Sequence record: PQ724393.1
Origin: a phage
DNA length: 64,000 bases
Strand: one strand, 5' to 3'
A model generated the notes under the pieces. The model was not told the DNA's origin. It made no database searches and saw nothing but the letters and a program-made list of their open reading frames with translations. Every line of letters begins with the position of its first letter. Within the stretch, counting starts at the first letter, position 1. Below are positions 5,555-53,495 of this stretch, piece by piece. Both the position numbers and the translations under genes were made by a program.

Positions 5555-5585
5555 CGCATGTTTCCTGTGTAATAACCATAGGACC

Positions 5586-6625: not shown

Positions 6626-6643
6626 TGTCTTCTCCTTTAAGCT

Positions 6644-6651
6644 TATTTATA
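6644..6651 (-). promoter_or_regulatory. late promoter (TATAAATA on - strand) for genes 26-25
   Basis: overlaps the divergent + strand late box by 4 nt. Confidence 0.5.
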
Positions 6652-6655
6652 AATA
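6648..6655 (+). promoter_or_regulatory. late promoter TATAAATA for gene 51
   Basis: exact TATAAATA 20 nt upstream of ATG 6676. Confidence 0.55.
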
Positions 6656-6675
6656 CATCAATAAGAGGACACCCT

Positions 6676-8594: not shown

Positions 8595-9075
8595 CAAAGA
8601 GATTTCCATTCCTAAATTGGGTCTTAAACACCAGAAATTGGTTAAAGATGAAAAGGACCCTTACAAGGCTCTTCACATATTAATGAATTCCATTTATAAA
8701 GATTTATCCGCGGCAGAGACTGATTTTGCCGCTCTTCACCTTTTAGAATTCAATGGAAGATTAAAAAGTAAAGTAACCAAAGACGGGTTTACTTATAACT
8801 TAAATGACCTTTATATCTGCCAACGACTTGAATTCCAATTCCAAGGTAAAACATTTAAATTTAAATCACATGAACCATTTCAAACATTTGGACCTGTTGA
8901 TAGTGTATTACAGTCCCTTTACCTTGGTGATGATGTACCAGATTTTCTGGATATGCCTGCCTTTGTTGCTACATGGGCCGACGATATAACTTCTACTATA
9001 GCTATCCCTGGTCCTAATGGTCCTATCAAAGGATTGCTTAAAATCATGGATATCTTAAATGAAGAACGAATCTAA
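8548..9075 (+). CDS. 28: baseplate hub distal subunit gp28
   Basis: start moved to internal ATG ([11 protein letters not shown]); about 175 aa versus T4 177. Confidence 0.7.
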
Positions 9076-15327: not shown

Positions 15328-15330
15328 TAT

Positions 15331-17379
15331 TTACCCTTGGGTGAATTTTTCTGGGGTTTCGTCAAAATTAATACATGAAGCTAAAATAGGCATTATATCC
15401 ACCTTGGTCGATTTGACGAATGAATCAAAAGACACAGGGTTGTCGGTCTCTGTTTCTACGCCTTGGTAAACAACCAATTCACCGGTTTCCATCAATGCAT
15501 CACCATCATAGATAACCGCATTTTCTGCTAGTTGGTCTGTGGTCTGGATATCGGCTTCCAATAATTTGGTGTTGTAGTTTCCTTTATATGAGGCATCAGT
15601 AATTTTAGTAATCTTAACAGTAGTTCCGCGTGGAAGAATAACCTCTTGTTCTGTTGGAGAACCTGACAATTCACCGGGCACAATTACGTTAATAGAGTCT
15701 GCACCGGAAATTTTCCAACCGATGTTCATCATTGTATTTTCGGAACTCGTCAGCATACTTGGAAGAACAATTTCATTATCGCCTTGGAAAGATGTCCCAA
15801 CGCGATAGTCCTGATGAACTGCGGCCATTGCGACGTTTGATACCCAGCCGCCAAAGATAATCGGCTTAAGGGACGTTGATACATAGTTCCTGAAATAAAA
15901 CAATTTTGAGTGTTTGATTTTATCAAAAGTGTTAACATTTAAATATTGACCACGCCAAAGTGTAATATCAGGTGGCAATTTATGGCCAATTTCAAATGCC
16001 GCATCCATATCATTAATTACTTCAATTACATGATGGCTATCAATGAATTCTGCATCCTCTTCATAATAATCACCCAACAAATAATTATTAACATCGGTAT
16101 AATATTGGCCGCAATAAGAAGAAATAGCCTCACGCTGCTCATACTCAAATCGATTATCACTATAACTGGCTGTAAAATGCATAACACTTTCTGAAGCTTC
16201 ATTAGCAAAGTCGGCAACAGCAGCACTTATACGTTGAGCATACTCTTGTTCCCAAAGCTCTGCTGCATATTCTGCCGCATCCATATTAGGAGGGGCCTCA
16301 TTCATTTTTCTTTCGATAAATGCAGCTTTGCGAAGGTTAAGAACCTCTGCACATGATTCGGCAAAAATCTGCATCTGCTTCATACTGCCGACAGGAGCAC
16401 GTTTAAGTTCACGATGCATACGGTTAAAAATTGGGTCAGAGTCTTCGACTCGAATTTCTTCTTTCCACACACCATTTGCTCGCATAGCCGTATCTGCCGC
16501 GCGCATACGCTCCATAGTATTCGTTTCAGAAGGTTGAATAAAAATTTCTAGTTCTTCATAATCATCGATAAGTTCCGCTGTTGCTGGGGCACTAAATTTT
16601 GATGCCTCTGCATCAATCTCATTCCAACCTTCCGGAACTTCATCTCGAGGAGAATACTGGGCTGCGGCTACAGCACGCCTAGAAATCTTGGTAGTGGTAA
16701 TAACAGCCTTATCCGTACGTTTTTCTTCGACTGCCGCTATACTAGCAGATAGTGCTTCTATTTTGGTTACTGATTGGCCTGTTTTCTTGGATACATAAAC
16801 CTCACCAACTTTAGACTCAACCTTAGTGTAAAGGTCTGCATCAATTTCAGGCATACCTTTTATGTCCTCAATATTAGCTTGTTTACGAACCAGTAAAACG
16901 TATGTATGTTTGCCTGTAAATTGATACATATCATCGACAACTTTAAACTTGCCGCCAGTACGAGCCATCGCCAATCGTGCCAATACACGTTGAACAGTAG
17001 GACCCTTACCTTTCATTTTCTTGGTAGGGAACCGGAAAAGAACTGCATCCATTTTAAGTTTGTTTACTTGTTCGTATACAGTATCAAAAATGGTATTCAG
17101 CGTACCAAGTGGGTCAGAACCTAACCCGCCTTTCAGCTCGGCTGGGGTACCCTTAGCAGACAAACTCATCAAAATAACATGAACATATTTGTCGCCAGGC
17201 TTAACCATTTTAATAGCGTCTCCTTGAGACGCATAAGATACCATACGAGCCACCAGATTATCATTACCTGGTGCTTGGATAGAGAAAATCTGTGGAACAC
17301 TGGAACCCGGTTTAAGATTTGTTACTGGATAGTTTTTAGCGGAATCACTATCAAAAACCTCGTTTAAATTTTCCATCAT
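15331..17379 (-). CDS. alt: Alt-like ADP-ribosyltransferase, paralogue 2
   Basis: 682 aa; same N-terminal module; ART motifs LWRGQ, YVSTSLKP, EQEVILPRG; unrelated central region. Confidence 0.85.
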   Translation of the reverse strand: MMENLNEVFDSDSAKNYPVTNLKPGSSVPQIFSIQAPGNDNLVARMVSYASQGDAIKMVKPGDKYVHVILMSLSAKGTPAELKGGLGSDPLGTLNTIFDTVYEQVNKLKMDAVLFRFPTKKMKGKGPTVQRVLARLAMARTGGKFKVVDDMYQFTGKHTYVLLVRKQANIEDIKGMPEIDADLYTKVESKVGEVYVSKKTGQSVTKIEALSASIAAVEEKRTDKAVITTTKISRRAVAAAQYSPRDEVPEGWNEIDAEASKFSAPATAELIDDYEELEIFIQPSETNTMERMRAADTAMRANGVWKEEIRVEDSDPIFNRMHRELKRAPVGSMKQMQIFAESCAEVLNLRKAAFIERKMNEAPPNMDAAEYAAELWEQEYAQRISAAVADFANEASESVMHFTASYSDNRFEYEQREAISSYCGQYYTDVNNYLLGDYYEEDAEFIDSHHVIEVINDMDAAFEIGHKLPPDITLWRGQYLNVNTFDKIKHSKLFYFRNYVSTSLKPIIFGGWVSNVAMAAVHQDYRVGTSFQGDNEIVLPSMLTSSENTMMNIGWKISGADSINVIVPGELSGSPTEQEVILPRGTTVKITKITDASYKGNYNTKLLEADIQTTDQLAENAVIYDGDALMETGELVVYQGVETETDNPVSFDSFVKSTKVDIMPILASCINFDETPEKFTQG
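16669..17379 (-). repeat. direct repeat: conserved 5' ~700 bp of alt paralogue 2
   Basis: see 14620-15327. Confidence 0.6.
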
Positions 17380-19464
17380 TTACCCTTGGATGAATTTTTC
17401 TGGGATGTCATAGAGGTCTATGCATGAAGCCAAAAGAGGCAATACATCAAACCGTGTAGATTTAACAAATGAATCAAAAGATACAGGGCTTTCGGAAGTA
17501 TCGAAGTCATCTTGATATACGACCAACTCGCCGGTTTCCATTAGTACGTCACCATCATATACCACAGATTCTTGAAGCTCATCTGTTGTCATAACTTCAG
17601 CTTGGATGAGTTTTGTATTACTAGATGTTGTTCCATCATTATTAGAAGAATCTGTTATTTTATTAACTTTGACCATTAATCCACGCGGTAGAATAACTTC
17701 GGCTTCAGTTGCTATTCCGAGATTTCCTGGATATACGACATTAACTTTATGAGCCCCATCAATAGCCCATCCTATTTGAACTTTAACATAATCAGGATTT
17801 TCTTTATATGCTCTTATTTCATTAGGATTAATAGTTATTCCTTCTTCATTTTTATCGACTGTCAATTCATTGCGAACTTCCGGTTCTAAAAGACCAATAC
17901 CTGCGTGGGTAACACCAAAACGTCCAAAAATGATAGGAGTTAAAGAAGTAGATACAAAATTTCTGAAATAGAACACTTTATTTTTAACTAGTGCTTCGTA
18001 TATAGGAGCAGTCATACTCTGAGCACGATAAACTGTGATGCCCTCTGGTATACGGTCGCCATTTTCAAAAGCAGAATCCAAATTATTAACCGCGGATTCG
18101 ATATCTTTTTCGCTCATAACCTCATAGTTCTGAGGATTATAACGTCCTAAAAGAAGATTATTTATGTCTGTATATCCTGAACCACAATATTCTCTGATGC
18201 CGCGCTTTTGTGATGGGGTATATTTAGAGCCCTCACGAGCAATAGTAATATCGACCATAATACCGCCACCCACACCAGCAAAACTATATACACGTTTTTT
18301 AATGAACTTGGTCTTGGCGGCTTTCCACTTCGCATCGGTCAATTCATTCCAGAGGTCGTCAGGTTGGCCTTTACGAGTTTTGTTATGCCATGCCAGCCAT
18401 TCACCTTTGTATTCTTCGAAAACGGTATTAATAGCAGAGGCATATTTTTCTAGAGCTTTAACAGATGTCAAAGGTTCGTTTTTGATGGCCGTAAGAATTT
18501 TATTTTTAATTTTCTCTTGGATTTCACCTATACCGTGAAGAGGAAACATTTTATAATCGTAATGCAATTCTTCAGCCGTGCCTTCAGCCACTATATTAGC
18601 AACCTTATTTTTAGCCGCAGGAGAATTGTTATTAGTAACCATTTCCTGAGCCTCAGGGATTAATGGAACTGTTGCAGGTTTATTAAAATCTGCTGCAGTA
18701 GCTTCATATTTCTTAAACAATTCACTTTCATTACGATAAGATTCCAATGATTGGCTTGCTGCAATGGCGCGCCTAGAAATCTTAGTCTTGGTTATAACCA
18801 TTTTATCAGTGCGACGTTCTTCAACCTTAGCAATACTGCCGGCAATAGCAGTTTCTTTAGTAACCTGCACACCTTCTTTTTTGGAAATATAAACTTCACC
18901 GACATCAGAATCTACCTTAGTATACAATTCAGCATTAATTCCAGGCATACCTTTGATATCTTCGATATCAGCTTGTTTACGAACTACTAAGATGTAAGTA
19001 TGTTTACCGGTAAATTGGTACATAGCCGGAACCACTTTAAAACGTCCACCGGTTTTCTGTGCTACCAAACGTTGGATAATCCGTTGGACAATAGGTCCTT
19101 GTCCTTTCATTTTCTTGGTAGGAAAACGGAACATCACGGCATCCATACGAAGCTTTTTAACTTGGTCATAAACCACATCAAAAATAGTATTAATCGCATC
19201 TACAGGAGTAGGGCCAAGGCCACCTTTAAGTTCGGCTGGAGTACCTTTAGCCGATAAGCTCATTAAAATTACATGAGCATATTTATCGCCTAATTTAACT
19301 TGTTTGATTGCGTCGCCTTCAGAAGCATAAGAAACCATACGTGCTACTAATTGGGACTCTACGCCACCAATCTTCCAAATCTGCGGTACTTTAAGTTTAG
19401 GGTTCAAGTTTACTGTAGGCAGTGTGCCTTCGGACTCAAACACTTCATTTAATTGTTCGGTCAT
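17380..19464 (-). CDS. alt: Alt-like ADP-ribosyltransferase, paralogue 3
   Basis: 694 aa; N-terminal module about 65% identical to paralogues 1 and 2; ART motifs VYRAQ, FVSTSLTP, EAEVILPRG; C-terminal tail shared with paralogue 2. Confidence 0.85.
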   Translation of the reverse strand: MTEQLNEVFESEGTLPTVNLNPKLKVPQIWKIGGVESQLVARMVSYASEGDAIKQVKLGDKYAHVILMSLSAKGTPAELKGGLGPTPVDAINTIFDVVYDQVKKLRMDAVMFRFPTKKMKGQGPIVQRIIQRLVAQKTGGRFKVVPAMYQFTGKHTYILVVRKQADIEDIKGMPGINAELYTKVDSDVGEVYISKKEGVQVTKETAIAGSIAKVEERRTDKMVITKTKISRRAIAASQSLESYRNESELFKKYEATAADFNKPATVPLIPEAQEMVTNNNSPAAKNKVANIVAEGTAEELHYDYKMFPLHGIGEIQEKIKNKILTAIKNEPLTSVKALEKYASAINTVFEEYKGEWLAWHNKTRKGQPDDLWNELTDAKWKAAKTKFIKKRVYSFAGVGGGIMVDITIAREGSKYTPSQKRGIREYCGSGYTDINNLLLGRYNPQNYEVMSEKDIESAVNNLDSAFENGDRIPEGITVYRAQSMTAPIYEALVKNKVFYFRNFVSTSLTPIIFGRFGVTHAGIGLLEPEVRNELTVDKNEEGITINPNEIRAYKENPDYVKVQIGWAIDGAHKVNVVYPGNLGIATEAEVILPRGLMVKVNKITDSSNNDGTTSSNTKLIQAEVMTTDELQESVVYDGDVLMETGELVVYQDDFDTSESPVSFDSFVKSTRFDVLPLLASCIDLYDIPEKFIQG
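18760..19464 (-). repeat. direct repeat: conserved 5' module of alt paralogue 3 (more diverged)
   Basis: protein-level conservation of residues 1-235; approximate. Confidence 0.45.
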
Positions 19465-19702: not shown

Positions 19703-21208
19703 TTATAGTCCAGTTTGAGACCAATCGCCAAATACATCTTCAAATGTATCAGCTTCTGTTTTATCGAAACGCCAACCTTTAATAATTGGAAGGAAAATAC
19801 CTACAGTATCAGTACGTCCTTTAGAATGAACCCAACCATTACATTCGCAGTCAGCAATACGACCAATCAATTTACCTTCACGGGCTTGTTTCATAAGAAG
19901 TTCACGGTCTAAATCAGGACGGTCTTCTAATGGAATCAATACCTTTTTACCTGATTTATCTTTCTTATGGGTGGTATCTTTAAAGCCTGAGCCACAGTCA
20001 CTTGTAATTCGACGACAACGTGATACCAATTCGACACCGCCAAGTTTGTTAGGGTCCTTCGAGTGTTCATAATAACCCACTACTTCTAAAGCGATATCGA
20101 TTACTTCTTTGAACTTGATAAGATTCTTAGAACGGCGGTTTTCCCAGTAGGAGTCCATGTTCTTAAGGATAATGCCTTCCAGGCCCTGGTCGACATATTT
20201 CTTATAAACGACTTTAGCTTCGTCAAGATTATTAACCCATTGCGTTTCTATAGGCTCGACACGTGTAAAACCTTCAGCCATTTGTACTAATGCCGCTAAA
20301 CGAACATCGTATTTTTGACCTTTAATTTTGCCTTCAGAATAAACTTCATCCAGTGGAACAAAGTCCCATGCCTGTAATACCATACCATCAGCTTCAGCTG
20401 GAGTAATAGTTCCTTGAAGAGCTTTATTAGCCAAACCATTTGAAGTAGAACGGTCGGCGACTGTCCGGAATTCCTTGGTTTTACTTAATTCCGGAAGTTC
20501 TTCATCAAACATACTAAACAAATCATTAGATGCTTTCGGTTCAACCTTAGGCGTGTGGTAAACTAATTCGCCATCAATCATAACACCATTAGGATGGCGC
20601 TGACGAGCTTCTTCAGTCATTTTAATAAGTTCGGCTGCAAGCTTAGTAAGCCCTTGATATTCATTACCACCGCGAGTAAGGAATGTTACCCCATCGTTAC
20701 GAACTTCAGCAAAACAACGGGCACCGTCAGCTTTTAATTGAGCGAACGCTGGCCATTTAATATTTTTCTTAATTAGAGCTTCGTCATAAGAACTAGCCAA
20801 CATCTGTGGTTGTTCAGGGATTAAACCTTTCCAAACCTTGTTAGCAATAGAAATCGATGCACCACATTCAAGGTCGCGCATCATTACACGACGTAGTACC
20901 TCAGCGTCTGGACCCTTGGCATCGGCGATAATTTGGGCAAGTTCTTCAATAGCAGCATTACCTGTAATCTTACGGGTTGCTAGTGTGAACTCAGCGAAAT
21001 CAAGAAGGTCTTCAAGTGTAATCATACCAAAGGATTGAGACGTAAATCCAGGTTCTGGCCACTTTTTGATGCCGTAGTTCAAACGACGGGTATAAGCCAT
21101 ACGATATACACGTTTCAGAAGCTCATTATCCTTTTCACGGGCAATAATAGCTTCTTTAGCTTTAGTAGAATCAATAGAAGCAATTTCGTTTAAAATATCT
21201 AAAATCAT
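19703..21208 (-). CDS. 30: ATP-dependent DNA ligase gp30
   Basis: 501 aa; adenylation motif KADGAR; size and position as T4 DNA ligase. Confidence 0.9.
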   Translation of the reverse strand: MILDILNEIASIDSTKAKEAIIAREKDNELLKRVYRMAYTRRLNYGIKKWPEPGFTSQSFGMITLEDLLDFAEFTLATRKITGNAAIEELAQIIADAKGPDAEVLRRVMMRDLECGASISIANKVWKGLIPEQPQMLASSYDEALIKKNIKWPAFAQLKADGARCFAEVRNDGVTFLTRGGNEYQGLTKLAAELIKMTEEARQRHPNGVMIDGELVYHTPKVEPKASNDLFSMFDEELPELSKTKEFRTVADRSTSNGLANKALQGTITPAEADGMVLQAWDFVPLDEVYSEGKIKGQKYDVRLAALVQMAEGFTRVEPIETQWVNNLDEAKVVYKKYVDQGLEGIILKNMDSYWENRRSKNLIKFKEVIDIALEVVGYYEHSKDPNKLGGVELVSRCRRITSDCGSGFKDTTHKKDKSGKKVLIPLEDRPDLDRELLMKQAREGKLIGRIADCECNGWVHSKGRTDTVGIFLPIIKGWRFDKTEADTFEDVFGDWSQTGL

Positions 21209-42940: not shown

Positions 42941-45900
42941 ATGGCCGATATTTTAAAACCTGCATTCCGTGCTACATCCGGACTCGATGCTGCGGGCGAG
43001 AAAGTTATCAATGTTGCCAAAGCCGATTACAATGTATTAGATGATGGCGTCAACGTTGAATTCTTTATAGATGAGAACACCATCCAGGCGTACGACGAGA
43101 CGCGCGGATATAAGAATGGGTTTGCCGTAATCCATGACCAACGTATCTGGGTTGCTCAACGTGATATCGCTGCACCAGCCGGAACTTTTGTACCTGGTTA
43201 TTGGACCGCTACCCGTACCGACCCTAAATGGATTACCGTAGCGTCTCCTACACGCCAGCTGGCTTCCGGTGAATATATTGCGGTGGATTCTGCTGCTAGC
43301 TTTACTACATTTACCCTGCCTCCGAACCCTACTGACGGTGATACAATCGTAATCAAGGATATTGGTGGTCGTGTAGGTTATAATGAAATTAAGCTCCAGT
43401 CTAGTTCTGCTCCAGGCGGCGGTAATCAGAAAATTGTTCGTTTTGGTAATCAGTTCACTGAGACCTTAATTACGAAGCCTTTTTCTTATAATATGATTAT
43501 CTTTGCCAACCGTTTATGGCATTTCTGGGAAGCAGCTAATGAAGAACGTGGTATTCGTGTAGAACCGAACACCGCTCAGTTCCAATCACAAGCGGGTGAT
43601 AACGTTTTGCGCCGTTATACTTCAGGTGCAGTAATTAAGTTTACTCTTCCTAAGTATGCGAACCAAGGTGATATTATTAAAACCGTTGATATCGATGGTT
43701 TAGGAAGTAAGTTCCACTTAATTGTAGAAACGTTTGATGCTTCGTCTGCATTAGGTAAACCTGGGCAGCATAGTATGGAATTCCGTACCTCCGGCGATGG
43801 ATTCTTTGTTTATAACTCTACCGAAAAATTATGGTATGTTTGGGACGGTGATCGTCAAACTCGTTTACGCGTAATTCGTGACGATGTTGAACTCTTGGCT
43901 AACGAAAGCGTTATTGTTTTTGGTCCTAATAACACGACACCACAGACAATTAATATCACATTACCTACAGGCGTAGCCCAGGGTGATGTAGTCAAGATTG
44001 CTCTGAACTATCTCCGTAAAGCTCAGACGGTAAATATTAAGGCCGCTGTAGGAGATAAAATAGCTTCTTCGGTTCAATTGCTCCAGTTCCCTAAACGTTC
44101 TGAATATCCGCCAGATACTGAATGGGTATTGAATGATGTATTGACCTTCAATGGTAACTTAAGTTATACTCCGGTTATTGAACTGAGTTATATTGAAGAC
44201 TCCACTACAGGTGGCAAATATTGGGTTGTTGCTCAGAACGTTCCTACTGTAGAACGTGTAGATTCTAAAGATGATTTAACCCGTGCTCGTCTTGGTGTTA
44301 TTGCTCTGGCGTCTCAGACCCAAGCAAACGTCGACCATGAAAATAATCCTGAAAAAGAACTGGCTATCACCCCACAGACTTTAGCCAATCGTGTAGCTAC
44401 CGAATCACGTCGTGGTATTGCTCGTATTGCTACTACTGCTCAGGTAAACCAGAACACAACTTTCGCGTTCCAGGACGATTTGATTATTTCTCCTAAGAAA
44501 TTAAACGAACGTACTGCAACCGAAACTCGTCGTGGTGTTGCTGAAATTGCTACGCAAGTTGAAACTGATGCCGGTGTTGATGATACAACCATTATCACTC
44601 CTAAGAAGCTACAGACGCGCCAGGGAACTGAAAGCCTGTCTGGTATAGTAAAATATGTATCTACCACAGGAACCACTCCTGCGACTTCTAGAGCAACTGT
44701 AGGTACTAACGTTTATAATAAGAACACAACTACTTTAGTTATTTCTCCTAAAGCTTTAGACCAATATAAAGCCGATCAAAATAACCAAGGTGCTGTATAT
44801 CTTGCTACGCAAGCCGAAGTTAATGCGGGTGCTACTAACCCAGGTTTTAGTAACTCGGTTGTCACACCTGAAACATTGGGTGCTCGTCGTGCTACTGATA
44901 CTAATCATGGTTTAATTGAAATTGCTACGCAAGCAGAGACTGATACTGGAACTGATTATACTCGTGCGGTAACGCCTAAGACGTTAAATGACAGGAATGC
45001 TACTCAAACACTTACTGGTATTGCTCGTATTGGTACTCAAGTAGAATTTGATGCAGGTGTATTAGATAATGTTATTTCAACTCCGTTGAAAGTTAAAACA
45101 AGATTTAATGATACTGCTAGAACTTCTGTCTCAGCAGCCAGTGGTTTGATTGAATCAGGAACCTTATGGAACCATTATACACTAGATATCCGTGAAGCAA
45201 GTAATACTCAACGTGGTACAGCTCGTTTGGCGACCCAAACTGAAGTTAATACTGGTACCGATGATAAAACAATCATCACTCCGCTTAAGCTTCAAGCTAA
45301 AAAGGCTACCGAAAACGCTGAAGGTATTATCCAACTCGCTACTCAGGCCGAAGTTATTGCGGGTACGATAAGTAATAAAGCGTTTAGTCCCAAGCATTAC
45401 AAATATGTCGTCCAACAGGAAAAATCCTGGGAAGCTACTTCTGCTCGTAGAGGATATGTTAAATTAACCACAGGTACCGCCACTTGGGAAGGCGATGATA
45501 CTAATGGCTCTGTTGCTAACCTGGCTAAATTTGAAGACGATGGTTTTGCTATTTCACCACTTCAGATGAACACCGCATTAACTCACTATCTTCCTATTAA
45601 AGGTAAGGCTTTTGACTCCGATAAATTGGACAACCTGGATAGCTCTCAGTTCGTCAGGAGAGATATCGACCAAATAGTTGAAGGAACATTAACCCTTCGT
45701 AAAAACATCAGAATCGATGGCCAGTTAACTACAGGTGGTACAGGTGAGTTTGGTGGTTCTTTAGCTGCTAATTCTACATTTACTATTCGTAATACAGGTG
45801 CTTCAACTCGTTTGGTATTTGAAAAAGGACCACAAACTGGAAATAACCCGTTTCAAACCATGAATATCCGAGTATGGGGTAACCAGTTTAGCGGTGGAAG

Positions 45901-46840
45901 TAATACAAGTCGTTCTACTATATTTGAAGTTGGTGATGAAACGTCTAATCACTTCTATTCACAGCGTAACGACGCTGGTAATATTACTTTTAGTATCAAC
46001 GGCACAGTTCAACCGATTAACGTTGATGCATCCGGAACATTGAATGCTAATGGTGCGGCGACATTTGGACGTTCAGTGACTGCACAGGGTGAATTCACAT
46101 CTTATAGTTCAAACGCATTTAGAGCAATTAACGGTAATTATGGTTTTATTATTCGTAATGCCGGTAATGACACCTATTTTATGCTCACCGCGGCGGGTGA
46201 ACAGACCGGTGGATTTAATGGATTACGTCCATTAATAATTAATAACCAATCGGGCCAAGTAACTATTGGTGAAAGCTTAATCATTGCCAAAGGTGCTACT
46301 ATAAATTTGGGTGGTTTAACAGTTAACTCGAGAATTCGTTCGCAGGGTACTAAACCTGCTGACCTTTATTCGAGAAAACCTAATGCCGATAATACAGGCT
46401 TCTGGTCCGTTGAAGTTAATGATTCAGCTACATATAATCAGTTCCCTGGTTATTTTGAAATGGTCGAAAAAGTTAACGAAGTAACAGGATTGCCTTACTT
46501 AGAACGTGGTGCAGAGATTAAATCCCCTGGCACATTGACCCAGTTTGGTAATACCCTGAATTCGTTATACCAAGATTGGATTACTTATCCTGCTAATGCC
46601 AACGCACGTACTACTCGTTGGACCCGTACATGGCAGCAAAGTAAAAATGCATGGTCGGGTTTTGTTCAGGTGTTTGATGGCGGTAACCCTCCTCAACCTT
46701 CTGATATCGGCGCCCTTCCGGCGGATAACGCTTCGATGAGTAACTTGACCATTCGTGACTGGTTACGTATTGGTAACGTTCGTATAGTTCCTGACCCGGT
46801 AACTCGTTCTGTTAAATTCGAATGGATTGATACACCATAA
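42941..46840 (+). CDS. 34: long tail fibre proximal subunit gp34
   Basis: 1299 aa (T4 1289); first large late ORF after rnh. Confidence 0.9.
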   Translation: MADILKPAFRATSGLDAAGEKVINVAKADYNVLDDGVNVEFFIDENTIQAYDETRGYKNGFAVIHDQRIWVAQRDIAAPAGTFVPGYWTATRTDPKWITVASPTRQLASGEYIAVDSAASFTTFTLPPNPTDGDTIVIKDIGGRVGYNEIKLQSSSAPGGGNQKIVRFGNQFTETLITKPFSYNMIIFANRLWHFWEAANEERGIRVEPNTAQFQSQAGDNVLRRYTSGAVIKFTLPKYANQGDIIKTVDIDGLGSKFHLIVETFDASSALGKPGQHSMEFRTSGDGFFVYNSTEKLWYVWDGDRQTRLRVIRDDVELLANESVIVFGPNNTTPQTINITLPTGVAQGDVVKIALNYLRKAQTVNIKAAVGDKIASSVQLLQFPKRSEYPPDTEWVLNDVLTFNGNLSYTPVIELSYIEDSTTGGKYWVVAQNVPTVERVDSKDDLTRARLGVIALASQTQANVDHENNPEKELAITPQTLANRVATESRRGIARIATTAQVNQNTTFAFQDDLIISPKKLNERTATETRRGVAEIATQVETDAGVDDTTIITPKKLQTRQGTESLSGIVKYVSTTGTTPATSRATVGTNVYNKNTTTLVISPKALDQYKADQNNQGAVYLATQAEVNAGATNPGFSNSVVTPETLGARRATDTNHGLIEIATQAETDTGTDYTRAVTPKTLNDRNATQTLTGIARIGTQVEFDAGVLDNVISTPLKVKTRFNDTARTSVSAASGLIESGTLWNHYTLDIREASNTQRGTARLATQTEVNTGTDDKTIITPLKLQAKKATENAEGIIQLATQAEVIAGTISNKAFSPKHYKYVVQQEKSWEATSARRGYVKLTTGTATWEGDDTNGSVANLAKFEDDGFAISPLQMNTALTHYLPIKGKAFDSDKLDNLDSSQFVRRDIDQIVEGTLTLRKNIRIDGQLTTGGTGEFGGSLAANSTFTIRNTGASTRLVFEKGPQTGNNPFQTMNIRVWGNQFSGGSNTSRSTIFEVGDETSNHFYSQRNDAGNITFSINGTVQPINVDASGTLNANGAATFGRSVTAQGEFTSYSSNAFRAINGNYGFIIRNAGNDTYFMLTAAGEQTGGFNGLRPLIINNQSGQVTIGESLIIAKGATINLGGLTVNSRIRSQGTKPADLYSRKPNADNTGFWSVEVNDSATYNQFPGYFEMVEKVNEVTGLPYLERGAEIKSPGTLTQFGNTLNSLYQDWITYPANANARTTRWTRTWQQSKNAWSGFVQVFDGGNPPQPSDIGALPADNASMSNLTIRDWLRIGNVRIVPDPVTRSVKFEWIDTP

Positions 46841-46848
46841 GAGGTAAT

Positions 46849-47973
46849 ATGGAAAGATTTATGGCTGAATTTGGACAAGATTACGTTCAAATTCCTGTAC
46901 TATCTGAAAATAATGCCGTTAGTTATAAACTTAGTATAGCAGGGAGCTGTACTAAGTCTACTAAAAAGGCTTATATCAAATTTCAAGATGAGGACTTCGG
47001 TCCTCAGAATTTCCAATCCGGCCTAAATTTGGTTGAAATAGACCCGACAAATAACACAATAGTAACTACAAAATCATACTCATTTACCAAAGACCATGAT
47101 GTTATTTCCCAAGCGTTTATAACTTATATTTCATCTATACCTGCTGGTAGAATTGTTTGCATTATTTCTTCCGGCAAATTAAACGCCTCACAAGTATTAA
47201 TTGATTGGTTTAGGGCTTCCGGTTCTACAGCATTTCCGGATAAATGGCTTATTGATAAAGTGGATACTTCTTATTCAGCTTTTTATGTTTCAGGAAGAAA
47301 TGCTATTGTAATGGAACATGTGCTTTATAACGATGGCGTTTTGGTAGAAGATGTTTCCACTCCATTAGAAGTCGTTTATGATAACTTTAATGATGTAGGT
47401 GGGACCGGGTTCCCTGTTAGAGTCATTGAAGATGAAAATACTTACTATAGCGGAGCTACTCAAGAAATTAAAAGGTTTCCTACCAATTCCGCCATAACTC
47501 CTTGTGCCGGTTATAATATGGTCCCTGGAGATTTCTTTTATCTTAAATTCCAAATGACCTATGACCAGGCTTTAAAAGATTTGGGGACGACTCAGATGTC
47601 CATACGATTTTTTAATGGCCAAGAAATGCTTCAATCCACTGATATCAATATTCCTGTAGGAGCAGGCTCTCCACCGGCAGGCGCATGGATGACTTTTGAG
47701 CGCGTAATAGAAGTTCCGCCAAATGCCAATGGTTTTACATTATATTGTAGAAAAACTGTCTCAGGCGGAGTAGGAGGTGTTAGGAATGTTATGTTTGGTG
47801 AAATAGCTAGACCTGAAGATACCCCTAAATCCGCTGAAATCGGTGTTAATGGTATTCGTATGAGCTATGGTACCGAAACCCGTTCAATGGGTAATGTTAT
47901 TGCACAATTGAATGACAAATCATCTGGTAACGCAGGTAAAGTATTTGTTCAAGAATTTAAAGAAAAATATTAA
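46849..47973 (+). CDS. 35: long tail fibre hinge gp35
   Basis: 374 aa (T4 372); position. Confidence 0.85.
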   Translation: MERFMAEFGQDYVQIPVLSENNAVSYKLSIAGSCTKSTKKAYIKFQDEDFGPQNFQSGLNLVEIDPTNNTIVTTKSYSFTKDHDVISQAFITYISSIPAGRIVCIISSGKLNASQVLIDWFRASGSTAFPDKWLIDKVDTSYSAFYVSGRNAIVMEHVLYNDGVLVEDVSTPLEVVYDNFNDVGGTGFPVRVIEDENTYYSGATQEIKRFPTNSAITPCAGYNMVPGDFFYLKFQMTYDQALKDLGTTQMSIRFFNGQEMLQSTDINIPVGAGSPPAGAWMTFERVIEVPPNANGFTLYCRKTVSGGVGGVRNVMFGEIARPEDTPKSAEIGVNGIRMSYGTETRSMGNVIAQLNDKSSGNAGKVFVQEFKEKY

Positions 47974-47996: not shown

Positions 47997-48004
47997 TATA
48001 AATA
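47997..48004 (+). promoter_or_regulatory. late promoter TATAAATA for genes 36-37
   Basis: exact box 26 nt upstream of ATG 48030. Confidence 0.6.
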
Positions 48005-48029: not shown

Positions 48030-48677
48030 ATGGCTGATTTAAAATTAGGCTCAACCGCCGGAGGTTCCGTTATATGGCACCAAGGCAACTTTCCGCTGAC
48101 GCCGGTATCAAATGATATTTTATATAAAACCTACAAAATCTATACCGAATTTAATAAGCCTCAAGCTACAGATAACGACTTTGTTTCTAAGGCAGCCGGA
48201 GGTACATATAAAGGTACTGTTAATTTTGAAAAAGGTATAACTTTTAACGACTCTGCCGGGTATGCTATTAAATTGGGTGCCAGAGAAGGCGGGCAACCTT
48301 TTACCGCTTCATTTAAGATTAAAGGGTCTTTTGGCCTTGAAACTGAAACGGGGACCCCATTTGTAATCTTCAACCCGAGCACTACAGTAGGAGCTAACCG
48401 TCTTACAGTAATGGGTGATATCCTTGGTCGTCAAATTAAAGACGAATCAGGCCGAGTGTTTTCTCCAGGGAATGCTCCGACAAAAGCCCAGGTAGGATTA
48501 AGTGATGTGGATAACGCAAAACAGGTCCAAATAAATAATAGTAACATACAATCCATGGCTGGTGTTCTTTCAGCCCCAAATTTCATATCTAGGAACCCAG
48601 GTACATTGAACGAACACGTTCCTCGTATTGACCAGGTTGTTCTTAGAGGTACATCTGAAGATTTTGGATATTATTAA
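48030..48677 (+). CDS. 36: long tail fibre distal connector gp36
   Basis: 215 aa (T4 221); position. Confidence 0.85.
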   Translation: MADLKLGSTAGGSVIWHQGNFPLTPVSNDILYKTYKIYTEFNKPQATDNDFVSKAAGGTYKGTVNFEKGITFNDSAGYAIKLGAREGGQPFTASFKIKGSFGLETETGTPFVIFNPSTTVGANRLTVMGDILGRQIKDESGRVFSPGNAPTKAQVGLSDVDNAKQVQINNSNIQSMAGVLSAPNFISRNPGTLNEHVPRIDQVVLRGTSEDFGYY

Positions 48678-48685: not shown

Positions 48686-51600
48686 ATGGCTACTTTAAAA
48701 TCGATACAATTTAAAAGAAGTAAAATAGCAGGAGCCAAGCCTACTGCAGCCCAGTTAGATGAAGGTGAACTGGCTATTAACTTGCGTGACCGTACCATTT
48801 TTACTAAGTCAGACCAGGGACAGATTATTGACCTTGGTTTTGCAAAGGGTGGTACTGTCGATGGCGATGTAACTATTAATGGGACCCTGAATTTAAACGG
48901 TCCTGAAATTGTTGCCTCTGGTGGTTATATAGAATTTAACTATCGTACGACAGGTAGTGGCTCTTGGGCAGGCCAGCACAGGGCCAAAGCTCCTATTTTT
49001 GCTGATTTAAGTGCGGCTGCATCTACTTCAGAATACAACCCACTGATTAAACAACGCTTTAAAGATGGAACATTTTCAGCAGGCACATTAGTTTCGGAAG
49101 GTAGTTTTAAATTCCACTATATTAATGAAGCTGGTGATTCAAAATATTGGACCTTTAATCGTAATGGTAATTTTCAAGTTGATACCGGTAGTTTAATGGT
49201 ATCAGCAGGTAATATTTCTGCATCAGGCAACATAAATTCGGCTAATGGTATTATCACCGGTCCTGAAATTGTTACCAAAAATATTAATTTCAGTACAAAA
49301 TCATTTGTAGCTAATGCAAATATAGGATACGACTGGGTTTCATTACCTACCTGGGTTTATAATCCTCCTGCTGATGGTTCTGATGATACTACTAACGGTT
49401 TAAACTATTTGCGTAAATTGCGTGCATCAAGTGCATCAAGTATTTTCCATGAAATTGCTGATTGTCGCAAAGGTAAACCACAAGAAATTTCTTGGTGGAC
49501 CGGCGTAGGACCATCGTCTTTCCAATGGGCTTTTGATAACTCTGGACGTATTACCGCAGGTAAATCAATTTCTGTAGGTCTTCCTGATAATGGTACAAAT
49601 GGTCGTTACCCACTAGATTCAGCAATTTCTATTGGTATTGCAATTGGTGATAATGACACCGGTATTAAATGGGTTCGTGACGGCGTTATTGATTTCATGG
49701 CTAACAGTATTTCAACCGCTACCATTTTGAATAACGGTATTAACAGTACTAAAAAATTGACGGTCGGTTATAGCCGTGATTCCGGCTCTACTTGGGATTT
49801 CCCAAATAACAACCAGGCAATGTTTACTGCTCGTACCGATATTGATGGTAATAATAATGGTGACGGTCAGACTCATATCGGTTATAGCAGCAATGCCAAG
49901 ATGTATCACTATTTCCGTGGCACAGGTCGTATGTCTGTTAGTATGGGTGATGGACTTCTTGTTGAACCGGGTATTTTAGATATTAAAACCGGTTCAAATT
50001 CATTAAATTTACGTGCTGACGGTACTGTTGCTTCAACGAAAAGAATTAAACTTGATAATGGATTGGTTCTTACCGGTTCTAGACCTGATGGTATTCAACT
50101 TGATGCACCCACATCAGTAGATGGCACTAAATCTATTTTGTGGGCTGGTGGTACTCGCGCAGGTCAGAATAAAAACTATGTAACTATTAAAGCATGGGGT
50201 AATGCATTCAACTCAACTGGTGATAAAACCCGTGAAACCGTATTTGAAGTTGGAGATGGACAAGGATACCATTTTTATTCACAGCGCATATCCCCTACCG
50301 GAGTTGAAACAGTTGGCCCTGTGATTATTCAAATGGCAGGTAGTTTATTGGCTCGTGGTACGTTAAACACTGATGGCAATCTTTATGTGAAAGGATTAAG
50401 TACACATGAAGGTACTGTGACCATGAATAATGGCCTTCGTTTAACTGGCGGCGCTAATATAAGCGGCCAGGTTAAAATTGGTGGTGTTAACGATGCATTG
50501 AGAATTTGGAACGACCGATATGGTGCTATTTTCCGTCGCTCAGAAACATCATTACATATTATCCCGACCAATGAAAATGAAGGTGAAAACGGTCCGATAA
50601 GCAACCTTCGCCCGTTTAGTATTGAATTAGGTACTGGTGCCATTAATATGGGCCATTCTTTAATGATAGGCAACTCGGCCCGCGGTGATGGCCTGCTGAA
50701 TATTGATACCAAAGCATTCTTGATTACAATTAACAGTCATTCGAAAATTAAACCTAATTATCGTATGGACTTAGAAAACGGTGCTTATATAAATGCTTTA
50801 ATGGATGCAAACGGTCGTTCAGCTGGCGCAGGTTCATTCGCGTCCCAGAATAATGAAAACGTCCGCGCTCCATTCTACATGAATATCGACCGTGATGATA
50901 CCAGCACTTATGTTCCAATGATAAAGCAACGTTATGTTCAGGGTAATGGATGTTTTTCAATAGGTACTTTGTTGAATAATGGCAACTTCCGCGTCCATTA
51001 TCACGCTGGTGGTGACGGTGGTTCGACTGGTGCTCAGATTGCAGATTACGGTTGGGAATTCACTAAATCCGGTGATTTTGTATCTCCACGACGTGTCTCG
51101 GCAGGTGGTTCGGTTTATCTAGGTACGGATGGTAATATCACTGGTGGTTCTGGTAATTTCTCTAACCTGAATACTACTTTAGACCGCAAAGTTACCACGG
51201 GGTGGATTAACTATTCTTCTGAAAGTGGCTGGTATAAATTGGCAACAGTAAATATGCCTCAAGGTGCAGCTACGGTCCAATTTAAAATAACAGGCGGTTC
51301 CGGTTTTAACGTTGGTATTTTTAGACAAGCAACAATTAATGAAATTGTATTGCGTTCCGGTAATAATACACCTAAAGGAATTAACGGTGTTTTATGGCAG
51401 CGCGAAACTGATGCTATTAAAGACATTGCATATATTAATACCTCAGACGATGAGTATGATGTTTATATTAATTGTGGTACTTATTTAAATAGACTTACCC
51501 TAGAATATAGCACTTCAGAAAACGCTTCGGTAGTAGTTTATGGATTATATGGGCCTACGCAATCACCGGTAGAAGAGCTTCCTGTAGATATTGTTAAAGG

Positions 51601-52663
51601 TCGTGTTTTTAAACTTCTTAATAATAGCTCAGATGTTTTTGACGCTGGTAGTTCTAATATTTCTACAAATGCCACCTTTGTTGCTAATACAACTGTAGGT
51701 TTCCGCCATAAATCCAATGGTGATGAAAGTGGTTCTGCCGCTACTCTGTTTTATAATGATGGTACTACGTTCCATATATTATTAACAGATAAGAACACCG
51801 ACACAGATAAAACTAAAGCCTCTGGTTCTAACAACAGTTTAAGGCCTTTTTCTATCAATATTGCTTCTGGTAAAGTAACTATTTCAAACTCTATGAGTGT
51901 TTCTGGTGTTGCAGAGTTTTATAACGGTCTTAATATCAAAAACAATGGAAGCATTAATTTTGATAAGTCTGGTGCGAACCCGAGAAACATGCGTATATTC
52001 CATGCCGGTGATGCTTCACGTGGAAACCGTATTGAAGTTGCGGATGAGTCTAATTACTTAGTTTATTGGGAAAAAACTCCGGGCGGCGCAAACCGTTCTT
52101 CATATAACCAATGTGAAGTTAATGGTATAACTACTCTTAACGTTAATACTAAAGTGAACACCCCACAAATTGGAGCATTTGGTGTTAACACAACTAATGG
52201 ATTTGGTGGTAACTCAATTGTAATAGGTGATACCGATACAGGTTTCAGACAAGTTGGCGATGGACTTTTAGAAGTTTGGACCAATGCCGTTCGCCGGATG
52301 CGATTCCAGAGTGGTGACACTTATTCTGATATGAATATAAATGCTCCAAACGTTTATATTCGTTCGGATATCAGATTGAAATCTAACTTCAAACCTATTG
52401 AAAATGCTCTTGAAAAGGTTGAACAGCTCGACGGTTTAATCTATGATAAAGCTGATTATATTGGTGGAGAGGTTGTTCACACTGAAGCAGGTGTTATTGC
52501 ACAGAGCCTGGAAAAAGTATTACCTGAAGCTATTCGTGAAGTTGAAGATATCAAAGGTAATAAAGTTCTGACCGTTTCGACTCAGGCCCAAGTGGCGCTG
52601 TTACTTGAAGCGGTTAAAACCCTGTCGGCTAAAGTTAGAGAACTTGAAGCTAAATTAAATTAA
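48686..52663 (+). CDS. 37: long tail fibre distal subunit gp37 with C-terminal intramolecular chaperone domain
   Basis: 1325 aa; N-terminus MATLK.IQFKRSKIAG..P.A..L.EGELAINL.DRTIFTK matches T4 gp37; C-terminal ~99 aa begin with SDIRLKSN. Confidence 0.9.
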   Translation: MATLKSIQFKRSKIAGAKPTAAQLDEGELAINLRDRTIFTKSDQGQIIDLGFAKGGTVDGDVTINGTLNLNGPEIVASGGYIEFNYRTTGSGSWAGQHRAKAPIFADLSAAASTSEYNPLIKQRFKDGTFSAGTLVSEGSFKFHYINEAGDSKYWTFNRNGNFQVDTGSLMVSAGNISASGNINSANGIITGPEIVTKNINFSTKSFVANANIGYDWVSLPTWVYNPPADGSDDTTNGLNYLRKLRASSASSIFHEIADCRKGKPQEISWWTGVGPSSFQWAFDNSGRITAGKSISVGLPDNGTNGRYPLDSAISIGIAIGDNDTGIKWVRDGVIDFMANSISTATILNNGINSTKKLTVGYSRDSGSTWDFPNNNQAMFTARTDIDGNNNGDGQTHIGYSSNAKMYHYFRGTGRMSVSMGDGLLVEPGILDIKTGSNSLNLRADGTVASTKRIKLDNGLVLTGSRPDGIQLDAPTSVDGTKSILWAGGTRAGQNKNYVTIKAWGNAFNSTGDKTRETVFEVGDGQGYHFYSQRISPTGVETVGPVIIQMAGSLLARGTLNTDGNLYVKGLSTHEGTVTMNNGLRLTGGANISGQVKIGGVNDALRIWNDRYGAIFRRSETSLHIIPTNENEGENGPISNLRPFSIELGTGAINMGHSLMIGNSARGDGLLNIDTKAFLITINSHSKIKPNYRMDLENGAYINALMDANGRSAGAGSFASQNNENVRAPFYMNIDRDDTSTYVPMIKQRYVQGNGCFSIGTLLNNGNFRVHYHAGGDGGSTGAQIADYGWEFTKSGDFVSPRRVSAGGSVYLGTDGNITGGSGNFSNLNTTLDRKVTTGWINYSSESGWYKLATVNMPQGAATVQFKITGGSGFNVGIFRQATINEIVLRSGNNTPKGINGVLWQRETDAIKDIAYINTSDDEYDVYINCGTYLNRLTLEYSTSENASVVVYGLYGPTQSPVEELPVDIVKGRVFKLLNNSSDVFDAGSSNISTNATFVANTTVGFRHKSNGDESGSAATLFYNDGTTFHILLTDKNTDTDKTKASGSNNSLRPFSINIASGKVTISNSMSVSGVAEFYNGLNIKNNGSINFDKSGANPRNMRIFHAGDASRGNRIEVADESNYLVYWEKTPGGANRSSYNQCEVNGITTLNVNTKVNTPQIGAFGVNTTNGFGGNSIVIGDTDTGFRQVGDGLLEVWTNAVRRMRFQSGDTYSDMNINAPNVYIRSDIRLKSNFKPIENALEKVEQLDGLIYDKADYIGGEVVHTEAGVIAQSLEKVLPEAIREVEDIKGNKVLTVSTQAQVALLLEAVKTLSAKVRELEAKLN
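52364..52660 (+). other. predicted self-cleaving intramolecular chaperone domain of gp37
   Basis: SDxRLKxN Ser-Lys dyad motif followed by a helical C-terminal segment. Confidence 0.55.
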
Positions 52664-52668
52664 GAAAA

Positions 52669-52682
52669 GGGCCTTCGGGCCC
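52669..52682 (+). other. UUCG-tetraloop stem-loop after gene 37
   Basis: gggccttcgggccc, no clear T-run. Confidence 0.4.
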
Positions 52683-52694
52683 TAAGGATTTATT

Positions 52695-53495
52695 ATGGCA
52701 ATCGTAGGATTACCCGGTTGGGTCGGCCAATCTGCAGTTGACGAAACAGGTCAACGTTGGATGGATGCAGCAATGCGTGATGTTCGTGTAGCTGTTCCGG
52801 GTTGGATGGGTTCGATGGCTAACCAATCAAAAGAAATTTACTTATCTATAGGGGCTAATCATAACTATGATAGGAATACCCTTATAAACTGGATGAGAGC
52901 ACAAGGTGGTGCGCCTGTGGTTATTACAATTACCGGCGACTTGGTATCAAATAGCCGCGGAAACCCTTGCCTGGAATTCCCTAGCAATCTTCCTAACGCA
53001 TATATTCAACTTACCATTAATAGCGGTGTGACTGTTTATGGCCGAGGAGGCCGAGGAGGCTGGACCCATAGCAACGGCAATGGTAATGGTGAGGCCGGCG
53101 GAATAGCCATACAAAACAATGCCGGAACTAAACTTCGTATCCGTAATAATGGCGCTATAGCCGGTGGTGGTGGCGGTGGCGGTGGCATCGCGTATAGGCC
53201 CCATTCAGGTGCTAACTGGCAAGATATAGGCGCTGGCGGCGGTAGACCATTTGGTGCAGCTGGTGGCGGAGGATACTCCGGTGGGGCGGCATCTCTTACC
53301 GGAGCAGGTGGTGGTTATAATTATGGTAACGCGCATTCCGGTGCTGGTGGGAATGTCGGTGCTAAAGGCCAAAACGCTTGGAATGATGGAGGTAAAGTGC
53401 TTAAAGTTGGCGCTGGTGGTAATGCTGGGGCAGCAGTCGCCGGTAATGCTCCTAACTGGCAAAACGTTGGTACGATATACGGAAGCAGAGTATAA
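52695..53495 (+). CDS. 38: receptor-recognising adhesin gp38 (T2 type, glycine-rich motifs)
   Basis: 266 aa; N-terminus MAIVG.PGW.G.SAV.ETGQRWM as in T2-type gp38; poly-Gly islands (GGGGGGGG) flanking variable segments. Confidence 0.8.
   Translation: MAIVGLPGWVGQSAVDETGQRWMDAAMRDVRVAVPGWMGSMANQSKEIYLSIGANHNYDRNTLINWMRAQGGAPVVITITGDLVSNSRGNPCLEFPSNLPNAYIQLTINSGVTVYGRGGRGGWTHSNGNGNGEAGGIAIQNNAGTKLRIRNNGAIAGGGGGGGGIAYRPHSGANWQDIGAGGGRPFGAAGGGGYSGGAASLTGAGGGYNYGNAHSGAGGNVGAKGQNAWNDGGKVLKVGAGGNAGAAVAGNAPNWQNVGTIYGSRV

Follow-up and report, generated by a model that had tools for sequence, protein, structure and literature searches.

A T2-type long tail fibre tip in a Dhakavirus: gp37 with a predicted self-cleaving S74 chaperone and a mosaic gp38 adhesin with loops of the OmpA class

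The module of a gp37 fibre subunit that ends in a peptidase S74 chaperone and a gp38 adhesin, together with its mechanism, has already been described for phages T2, T6 and S16. In T2 and T6, gp37 is cleaved and then capped by gp38 (PMC3157838), while in S16 autocleavage of the chaperone at S^SDRRIKK (full site DLNVS^SDRRIKK) uncovers the docking site for gp38; the corresponding motif of the fPS phages is DVYIR^SD (PMC7917993). Gp38 itself is described by a scheme of glycine-rich motifs (GRM) and hypervariable segments (HVS) (PMC3157838), and the latter set specificity in T2/T6, S16, RB5xRB32 chimeras and CM8xEV240 swaps (PMC3157838; PMC7917993; 10.64898/2026.04.02.716166). Swaps of the HVS redirect the receptor (PMC3157838; 10.64898/2026.04.02.716166), and a single substitution can suffice, such as Q206L in RB68, which switches the phage from OmpF to OmpW (10.64898/2026.04.02.716166). 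Receptor use may also be composite: RB32 requires OmpA plus LPS, and PST-like adhesins make use of Tsx as well as OmpA (PMC3157838). In the Dhakavirus LHE83, adsorption is blocked by anti-gp38 serum. With a chaperone that cleaves itself off and a capping gp38 being textbook knowledge for T2-like phages, and with structures and receptor swaps published, a further locus of this type is of small value for basic biology. Its practical value is modest and lies in a testable OmpA prediction for a Dhakavirus-type phage, which could assist the choice of phages for cocktails and the anticipation of resistance routes.

We analysed a window of 64,000 nucleotides of phage DNA (PQ724393.1), which is, by its nucleotide identity of 94-97% to the Dhakaviruses fDHCT2, JS10, JS98 and dhaeg, a Dhakavirus (JS98-like) genome. 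Its tail fibre region very probably codes for the distal end of a long tail fibre of T2 type, composed of a gp37 with an S74 chaperone and a capping gp38, with OmpA as the most probable receptor; nothing in the sequence spoke against this gp37/gp38 architecture. The gene order is rnh-34-35-36-37-38-t-asiA-motA-52, and the position of gp38 directly downstream of an S74-bearing gp37 and upstream of the holin gene t is the same in T2, T6, JS98, S16, PP01 and RB69. The gp37 part of the region comprises the following features:

48686-52663, plus strand: gp37, precursor of the distal subunit of the long tail fibre, 1325 aa (ORF list; phrog_1699, E 5e-299)
48686..52363, plus strand: predicted mature gp37, aa 1-1226, C-terminus ...NINAPNVYIR (from the S16 site, the fPS-phage motif and alignments)
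52364..52660, plus strand: Peptidase_S74 intramolecular chaperone domain, aa 1227-1325, 99 aa (Pfam, 54.5 bits; profile and Foldseek matches), with predicted release by autoproteolysis
52364..52381, plus strand: catalytic dyad motif S1227-D-I-R-L-K1232 (Ser codon 52364-52366, Lys codon 52379-52381)

An earlier note, made from the letters of this DNA, had described gp37 as a 1325-aa protein, compared with about 1026 aa in T4, and had read its last segment of about 99 aa, beginning with SDIRLKSN, as a chaperone of the autoproteolytic type with a Ser-Lys dyad. Both lengths are correct (T4 gp37 has 1026 aa), and Pfam, the conservation of the dyad, and profile and Foldseek matches bear out the domain assignment. 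The translation from 52364, precisely where the note had let its module begin, reads SDIRLKSNFKPIENALEK...LEAKLN*, which is 99 aa up to the stop codon and forms the extreme C-terminus of a fibre protein. The alignment with peptidase S74 domains that the note had suggested places aa 1227-1283 on positions 1-57 of 58 of the Pfam profile (PF13884; E 1.4e-14, 54.5 bits with a cutoff of 22 bits), so that the match starts at S1227 and, judged by sequence, is far beyond chance; T2 gp37 scores 56.5 bits. Residue indexing gives S1227/K1232 as the Ser-x4-Lys pair at the domain start. The pattern SDxRxK is kept in six gp37 proteins (window, T2, T6, JS98, S16 and DCP80), with SDIRLKS of the window aligned to SDRRIKK of the S16 chaperone, and S, D and K of the motif are each at least 90% conserved in alignment A1.

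Structural comparisons agree with this assignment. A profile search against the PDB matched the chaperone to S16 gp37 (6f45_A, E 1e-18), the MyRF ICA (7dc3, E 2e-10) and the GA-1 chaperone (3gud, E 4e-5), the chain of which begins at SD, with the serine homologous to S1227. The top 11 Foldseek matches of an AF2 model of this part (pLDDT mostly 85-95) were to 7dc3 (E 3.5e-6, TM 0.63), 3gw6 and 3gud; because a domain that acts as a trimer was modelled as a monomer, rmsd values are large and the fold match is supportive rather than exact. Profile and AF2 alignment were built from the homologues of a 129-aa C-terminal gp37 fragment, a set of 11 short proteins that served these two uses and is not a family survey. 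The K1F endosialidase (3GW6), the GA-1 neck appendage (3GUD) and the MyRF ICA (7DC3) share Peptidase_S74, the Ser-x4-Lys start and the predicted fold with the window protein, but they carry S74 on a tailspike, an appendage and a eukaryotic transcription factor instead of a T-even long tail fibre, and their sequence identity is low (14-23%). A phmmer search with the C-terminal 225 aa of gp37 gave PDB matches to influenza haemagglutinin HA2 (E 0.02-0.5), which are weak, lie just before and across the cleavage site and were rejected; the profile search gave clean S74 matches in their place.

With S16 as the precedent, the cut would lie on the N-terminal side of the dyad serine, and the piece released from gp37 is predicted to be exactly 99 aa long. 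The cut would fall at NVYIR^SDIRLKSN, in the R1226-S1227 bond and between nt 52363 and 52364, and would leave a mature protein that ends in ...NAPNVYIR1226, the last residues of which are predicted to serve gp38 as its docking surface. T2 (Tequatrovirus T2, LC348380) has the same junction, NVYIR^SDIRLKSNFKPIENAL, within a C-terminal stretch of 175 aa (aa 1150-1324 of the window protein) that is 71% identical, and the two gp37 proteins share their Pfam architecture including the C-terminal Peptidase_S74; over aa 1-1084, in contrast, identity is only 55%. At 749 aa, S16 gp37 is far shorter; it has DLNVS rather than NVYIR before the cut and releases a chaperone of 113 aa, compared with the 99 aa predicted here. 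As cleavage in this phage is deduced entirely from homology, S74 could in principle be a non-cleaving relic, with gp37 retaining its C-terminus and gp38 acting elsewhere. We consider this highly improbable: the dyad Ser and Lys and the adjacent Asp are intact and conserved, the S74 score is well over the Pfam threshold, the homologues of T2/T6 (PMC3157838) and S16 (PMC7917993) are reported to be processed, and the docking site of S16 gp38 becomes exposed only once the chaperone is removed (PMC7917993). Elsewhere in gp37, a self-BLASTP detected no internal repeats at E < 1e-3, and the short motif GDxDTG(I/F)(K/R) occurs twice, near aa 330 and near aa 1190.

The next gene encodes the adhesin, with the following parts:

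52695..53495, plus strand: gp38 adhesin, 266 aa, stop codon 53493-53495 (Pfam; S16 6f45_D, E 7e-42; model fold)
52695..52820, plus strand: N-terminal attachment domain, aa 1-42, with W9, W22 and W37 (Pfam Gp38_N); docking on the gp37 tip predicted
53040..53423, plus strand: specificity region GRM1 to GRM5, aa 116-243, 37% Gly, a predicted polyglycine sandwich with receptor loops and invariant Gly columns
53424..53492, plus strand: conserved C-terminal tail of T2 type, aa 244-266 (96% identity to T2)

Its coordinates and length are those first proposed, and the claims of a T2-type N-terminus and of poly-Gly islands flanking variable segments proved right as well: aa 1-115 are 88% identical to T2 gp38, and the glycine-rich region contains the runs GGRGG, G8, GAGGG, GGGG, GAGGG, GAGG and GAGG. 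Five Gly-rich motifs, at aa 118-122, 157-164, 179-193, 203-219 and 239-242, contain invariant Gly columns and are separated by variable stretches, the four HVS. Pfam identifies Gp38_N (PF21721) at aa 1-42 with 58.6 bits and GP38 (PF05268) at aa 47-266 with 227.5 bits and E 2e-67 (cutoffs 25 bits each), the two domains also found in T2 gp38, and the match to phrog_2056 has E 9e-98. Within the N-terminal domain, W9 and W22 do not vary in 31 gp38 homologues, and W37 belongs to the consensus; the role of Trp "prongs" in attachment comes from S16 (PMC7917993). In sequence as in predicted fold, gp38 resembles the solved adhesins of PP01 and S16: the gp38 model (pLDDT 85.8) matched the gp38 of PP01 (9v85, E 1e-21, TM 0.71/0.84) and of S16 (6f45_D, E 9e-21, TM 0.75/0.81), the solved reference tip (PDB 6F45), and Foldseek returned no other fold below E 1. 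Sharing its name and its gene position with T4 gene 38, gp38 might instead be an assembly chaperone of the T4 style that is absent from the virion, with the gp37 tip binding the receptor. This is exceedingly improbable, since the 183-aa T4 gp38 is unrelated to the window protein (BLASTP E 0.32), T4 gp37 lacks S74 and has the Collar and Phage_fiber domains and needle-tip modules that are missing from window gp37, and gp38 fits the adhesin families and adhesin structures. The adhesin that the earlier note had recognised, of T2/S16 type by sequence and predicted fold, is therefore the reading that we retain.

In the mechanism that we propose, gp37 would be synthesised as a 1325-aa precursor whose last 99 residues, the Peptidase_S74 chaperone, would nucleate the fibre trimer and its folding from the C-terminal end and would then excise themselves via S1227/K1232 at the R1226-S1227 bond. 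This cut would uncover the ...NVYIR tip of gp37, onto which one gp38 molecule may dock by its Trp-bearing N-terminal domain (aa 1-42). Placed in this way on the virion, the glycine-rich domain of gp38 would display four hypervariable loops that face the cell surface, and gp38 would set host specificity. The earlier note had likewise assigned receptor specificity to gp38 and not to the gp37 tip; adhesin family, fold and the published chimeras uphold this part of the claim, whereas its "T2-type" label applies to the scaffold only and does not extend to the loops:

53061..53099, plus strand: HVS1, aa 123-135, WTHSNGNGNGEAG; 69% identity to each of four OmpA-type gp38s, others 15-31%
53187..53228, plus strand: HVS2, aa 165-178, IAYRPHSGANWQDI; OmpA-type 86-93%, others 0-14%
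53274..53339, plus strand: HVS3, aa 194-215; OmpA-type 77-86%, others 14-45%
53352..53408, plus strand: HVS4, aa 220-238, which includes NAWNDGGKVLKV; OmpA-type 74-79%, others 21-42%

The gp38 protein is a mosaic of a T2-like scaffold and loops of the OmpA class, a finding that goes beyond the earlier note. The N-terminal 115 aa, the rung at aa 136-164 and the C-terminal tail resemble T2, in nucleotides as well as in protein, while the OmpA class is represented by HVS1 and, beyond the rung, by HVS2-4. The alignment of variable segments that had been suggested for predicting the receptor yielded pooled HVS identities of 82% to RB32, 79% to LHE83, 76% to FL08 and 78% to AV119, all OmpA-dependent, but only 32% to T2 (FadL), 19% to T6 (Tsx), 21-26% to S16 and PP01 (OmpC; S16 21%) and 21% to RB69 (OmpF), with the labels taken from the literature (RB32 OmpA plus LPS; LHE83, FL08 and AV119 OmpA; T2 FadL; T6 Tsx). 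RB32, LHE83 (Dhakavirus), FL08 and AV119 ("type 1", Lutz et al. 2025) are similar to the window protein in every HVS (69-93%) and differ from it in their scaffolds, which are of the T6/JS98 kind and only 37-46% identical over aa 1-115. By sequence, the loop set belongs to the class of these four phages and not to the FadL class of T2, and OmpA is therefore most probably the primary receptor. The Dhakavirus Bp7, with LamB and OmpC reported as receptors, lay outside the gp38 comparison set.

The call on the receptor is weaker than that on the architecture, and two other outcomes deserve consideration. A T2-type module might be expected to use the T2 receptor FadL (or OmpF), and scaffold and C-tail indeed share 88-96% identity with T2 gp38, and the tip of gp37 shares 71% with its T2 counterpart. 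However, the four receptor-contacting loops are unrelated to those of T2 (just 7-42% identity), and published chimeras locate specificity in the HVS block and not in the scaffold (PMC3157838; 10.64898/2026.04.02.716166), which makes this outcome very improbable. That the architecture is as proposed and OmpA is not the sole receptor, with specificity shifted to another porin or a further need added (for instance the LPS core, as in RB32), is unlikely, though a good deal less so. The window loops differ from the characterised OmpA binders at 18-24% of HVS positions, and the precedents of RB32 (OmpA plus LPS) and PST (Tsx and OmpA) (PMC3157838) and of the single-substitution switch from OmpF to OmpW (10.64898/2026.04.02.716166) point in this direction. 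Against it, all four HVS fall into one OmpA class. HVS2 also includes an Arg-x-His-Ser-Gly-Ala stretch, which in silico models of FL08/AV119 give as the principal contact with OmpA (PMC12032242). With IAYRPHSGANW and NAWNDGGKV, gp38 keeps the contact residues around R165 (R-V/P-H-S-G-A) and D217; the modelled contact stretches YR(P/V)HSGA and xDGGKVLKV are conserved among RB32, LHE83, FL08, AV119 and the window, and YRPHSGA is identical in RB32 and the window protein. OmpA thus remains the preferred receptor.

The locus adds one more natural adhesin that joins loops and scaffold of different ancestry. Because the gp38s of Escherichia phage DCP80 (PQ671644; 98%) and of the metagenomic cluster P0001 (99%) are nearly identical over their full length, this combination of scaffold and loops is already in public data; both are annotated as hypothetical only and carry no receptor assignment, and DCP80 gp37, in contrast to its gp38, shares only 42% identity across most of the protein. 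Identity of the HVS block at the nucleotide level is only 62-78% to RB32 and LHE83 (FL08 and AV119 were outside the nucleotide comparison), and for this reason the loops would not have been acquired recently from these two phages. We tentatively suggest, as a possibility with somewhat less than even chances, that gp38 is a natural patchwork from several short exchanges at glycine-rich motifs. If true, this would imply at least four breakpoints, and it would show that an entire set of OmpA loops can move naturally to a scaffold of other origin, and between genera; in laboratory crosses, no exchanges were recovered inside the GRM1-GRM5 block (PMC3157838). Alternatively, the similarities of scaffold and loops could reflect ordinary divergence and selection instead of discrete exchanges. 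The T2 resemblance is set in different backbones, Tequatrovirus in T2 and Dhakavirus here, and with different receptors, FadL there and OmpA by our prediction.

Two further features lie outside the coding sequences of gp37 and gp38:

47997..48004, plus strand: T4-type late-promoter motif TATAAATA upstream of gp36, informative by its position relative to genes only
52669..52682, plus strand: intergenic hairpin GGGCC-UUCG-GGCCC, located after the stop codon of gp37 and before the Shine-Dalgarno sequence of gp38

Since this motif precedes gp36 and none stands directly before gp38, gp36-gp37-gp38 are probably one late transcription unit. Other copies precede gp34 (at 42901) and t (at 53506), and the whole-window count (9 found, 6.7 expected) is not above chance. 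The hairpin, just upstream of the gp38 Shine-Dalgarno AAGGA at 52684-52688, is unremarkable in energy by itself (z -1.2) and is argued for by the stems, of other sequence, that are kept at the same gene 37/38 position in T2, JS98, T6 and S16. Whole-window RNA scans with Rfam (gathering thresholds) and ARAGORN found nothing. The GC content of the gp38 region is raised (53%, compared with about 40%), and 85-aa reverse-strand ORFs lie inside gp38; both most likely result from the many GGN glycine codons, and we take these ORFs as by-products of such codons rather than as genes.

We found that gp38, the predicted fibre-tip adhesin, is, by its sequence, a mosaic in which OmpA-class loops sit on a T2-like scaffold. 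This mosaic and the OmpA prediction go beyond the earlier note, whose observation of a T2-type gp37/gp38 module was confirmed and whose interpretation is supported. The module (52364-53495) runs from the S1227 codon of gp37, the long tail fibre distal subunit precursor, to the gp38 stop, and belongs to a canonical T-even long-tail-fibre operon:

42941-46840, + strand, gp34, 1299 aa
46849-47973, + strand, gp35
48030-48677, + strand, gp36
48686-52663, + strand, gp37, 1325 aa
52695-53495, + strand, gp38, 266 aa
53532-54185, + strand, holin t

The operon is preceded by rnh and followed by asiA, motA and gene 52 on the minus strand. Judged from sequence, the backbone is that of a Dhakavirus, and the nrd/td/gene 32 region shares 94-97% nucleotide identity with fDHCT2, MN04, JS10, JS98 and dhaeg.

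The 'T2-type' label is correct. T2 gp37 (1341 aa) carries the intramolecular chaperone domain Peptidase_S74 at aa 1243-1300, and T2 gp38 (262 aa) combines the same two Pfam families as the window's; the window's gp37 matches that of T2 at 55% identity across aa 1-1084 and at 71% in its final 175 aa. In contrast, T4 gp37 (1026 aa, in line with the earlier note) has Collar and Phage_fiber modules without the S74 domain found here, and the 183-aa T4 gp38 shows no similarity to the window's gp38 (E 0.32).

Translation from 52364 gives SDIRLKSNFKPIENALEK...LEAKLN and a stop, exactly the 99 residues beginning with SDIRLKSN that had been described. Peptidase_S74 matches gp37 aa 1227-1283 over profile positions 1-57/58 (54.5 bits, cutoff 22; E 1.4e-14), and the family model thus starts at precisely the serine named in the earlier note. 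The gp37 proteins of T2, T6, JS98, S16 and DCP80 share the motif SDxRxK, whose Ser and Lys lie five positions apart. When more distant S74 proteins are aligned, the motif is at least 90% conserved, and the profile derived from them matched S16 gp37 (6f45_A, E 1e-18), a tail-fibre chain (8jov, E 7e-11), the MyRF ICA domain (7dc3, E 2e-10) and the GA-1 neck-appendage chaperone (3gud, E 4e-5), whose crystallised chain begins at the homologous Ser. When the final 129 residues were modelled with AlphaFold2, confidence was high for the chaperone part (pLDDT mostly 85-95), and the model's top eleven Foldseek matches in the PDB are 7dc3, 3gw6 (endosialidase chaperone) and 3gud. Aligned with the cleavage sites of S16 (DLNVS^SDRRIKK) and fPS phages (DVYIR^SD; PMC7917993), gp37 would be cut at NVYIR^SDIRLKSN, between nt 52363/52364, giving a 1226-aa mature fibre and releasing exactly 99 aa.

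For gp38, the proposed T2-type N-terminus and adhesin architecture held. Gp38_N covers aa 1-42 (58.6 bits) and GP38 aa 47-266 (227.5 bits), and phmmer matched gp38 of S16 (6f45_D, E 7e-42) and PP01 (9v85, E 2e-39). A model from 31 homologues (pLDDT 85.8) resembles the S16 and PP01 structures only (TM 0.71-0.84), with no other match below E 1. W9 and W22 are invariant in the 31 homologues; the equivalent S16 tryptophans insert into the gp37 tip (PMC7917993). Glycine makes up 24% of the protein and 37% of aa 116-243, where the poly-Gly islands flanking variable segments correspond to the five glycine-rich motifs described for this type by Trojet et al. (PMC3157838). Modules of this kind are thoroughly characterised already.

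Identity of gp38 with T2 gp38 and with the gp38 of RB32, LHE83, FL08 and AV119, for which OmpA dependence has been shown (HVS, hypervariable segment)
Scaffold, aa 1-115: T2 88%; four OmpA-dependent 37-46%
HVS1, aa 123-135: T2 31%; four OmpA-dependent 69%
aa 136-164: T2 86%; four OmpA-dependent 62-66%
HVS2, aa 165-178: T2 7%; four OmpA-dependent 86-93%
HVS3, aa 194-215: T2 41%; four OmpA-dependent 77-86%
HVS4, aa 220-238: T2 42%; four OmpA-dependent 74-79%
Four HVS pooled: T2 32%; four OmpA-dependent 76-82%
C-tail, aa 244-266: T2 96%; four OmpA-dependent 65-74%

T2-like and RB32-like segments alternate in the nucleotide profile as in the protein. The nucleotide similarity of the related Dhakaviruses dhaeg, IME08, fDHCT2, CLB_P2 and AnYang to the window ends at ~53041-53050, the first glycine-rich motif, consistent with the proposal that these motifs are recombination points (PMC3157838).

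The variable segments, whose comparison had been suggested, point to OmpA rather than T2's FadL as the likely primary receptor, because their identity is high to OmpA-dependent adhesins and low to others (pooled: T6 (Tsx) 19%; the OmpC binders S16 21% and PP01 26%; RB69 (OmpF) 21%; JS98 28%), and because YR(P/V)HSGA and DGGKVLKV, modelled OmpA contacts in the 'type 1' OmpA binders FL08 and AV119 (PMC12032242), are kept. By published assignments, RB32 requires OmpA and LPS (PMC3157838); LHE83, also a Dhakavirus, uses OmpA. The prediction stays short of certainty since one HVS substitution can change the receptor (10.64898/2026.04.02.716166) and no near-identical gp38 has a tested receptor: DCP80 (98%) and a metagenomic cluster (99%) come closest, followed by a full-length relative at 73%. 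Public databases already contain this exact adhesin variant, without annotation. DCP80 (PQ671644; 141 kb, filed as Gaprivervirus) is the sole GenBank phage with a near-identical gp38; its gp37-gp38 (4341-9162) lie between DNA primase and exonuclease genes, not gp36 and t, which suggests a rearranged or misassembled record.

By analogy with T2/T6 and S16 (PMC7917993, PMC3157838), the chaperone would drive trimer folding, the S1227/K1232 dyad would cleave at R1226/S1227, the exposed NVYIR tip would bind the gp38 attachment domain, and the polyglycine domain would present four loops to the receptor. The HVS block would determine that receptor, as in the RB5xRB32 (PMC3157838) and CM8xEV240 (10.64898/2026.04.02.716166) swaps.

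T4 late-promoter motifs (TATAAATA) at 42901, 47997 and 53506 (+) directly precede gp34, gp36 and t, with none before gp37 or gp38, which suggests a single late gp36-37-38 transcription unit; the motif's count across the whole window does not exceed chance. A hairpin, GGGCC-UUCG-GGCCC (52669-52682), separates the gp37 stop codon from the gp38 Shine-Dalgarno. T2 (GAGGGC-TTCG-GCCCTC), JS98, T6 and S16 carry stems of differing sequence at this site, so the structure is kept, not the sequence. Probably this is a stable tetraloop hairpin of the T4 kind that influences gp38 translation or the stability of the mRNA; by energy alone it is ordinary (z -1.2).

Further upstream, gp37 contains at aa 509-646 (50210-50623) a homologue of the C-terminal trimerisation domain of gp34 (Pfam Gp34_trimer; PDB 4uxe/5nxf, E ~1e-10), a module also present in T4 and T2 gp37. 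A short GDxDTG(I/F)(K/R) motif is found both around aa 330 and around aa 1190, and a similar one near the S16 gp37 tip. The ~65 aa at 1085-1149 (51938-52132), between two T2-like blocks, may be a further mosaic insert directly upstream of the conserved tip; BLASTP found no counterpart in T2 or DCP80 gp37, and T6 gp37 aligns over part of it (29% identity). The hinge connector gp35 (46849-47973) matches, at aa 57-128, Pfam ILEI (PF15711, 'Interleukin-like EMT inducer'; 37.4 bits, cutoff 27), a surprising domain name in a tail-fibre protein. Adjoining the DNA ligase gene (19703-21208), three tandem Alt-like RNA polymerase ADP-ribosyltransferase paralogues (13204-19464, minus strand; 707, 682 and 694 aa) all match phrog_802 (each E < 1e-240); T4 carries a single alt gene.
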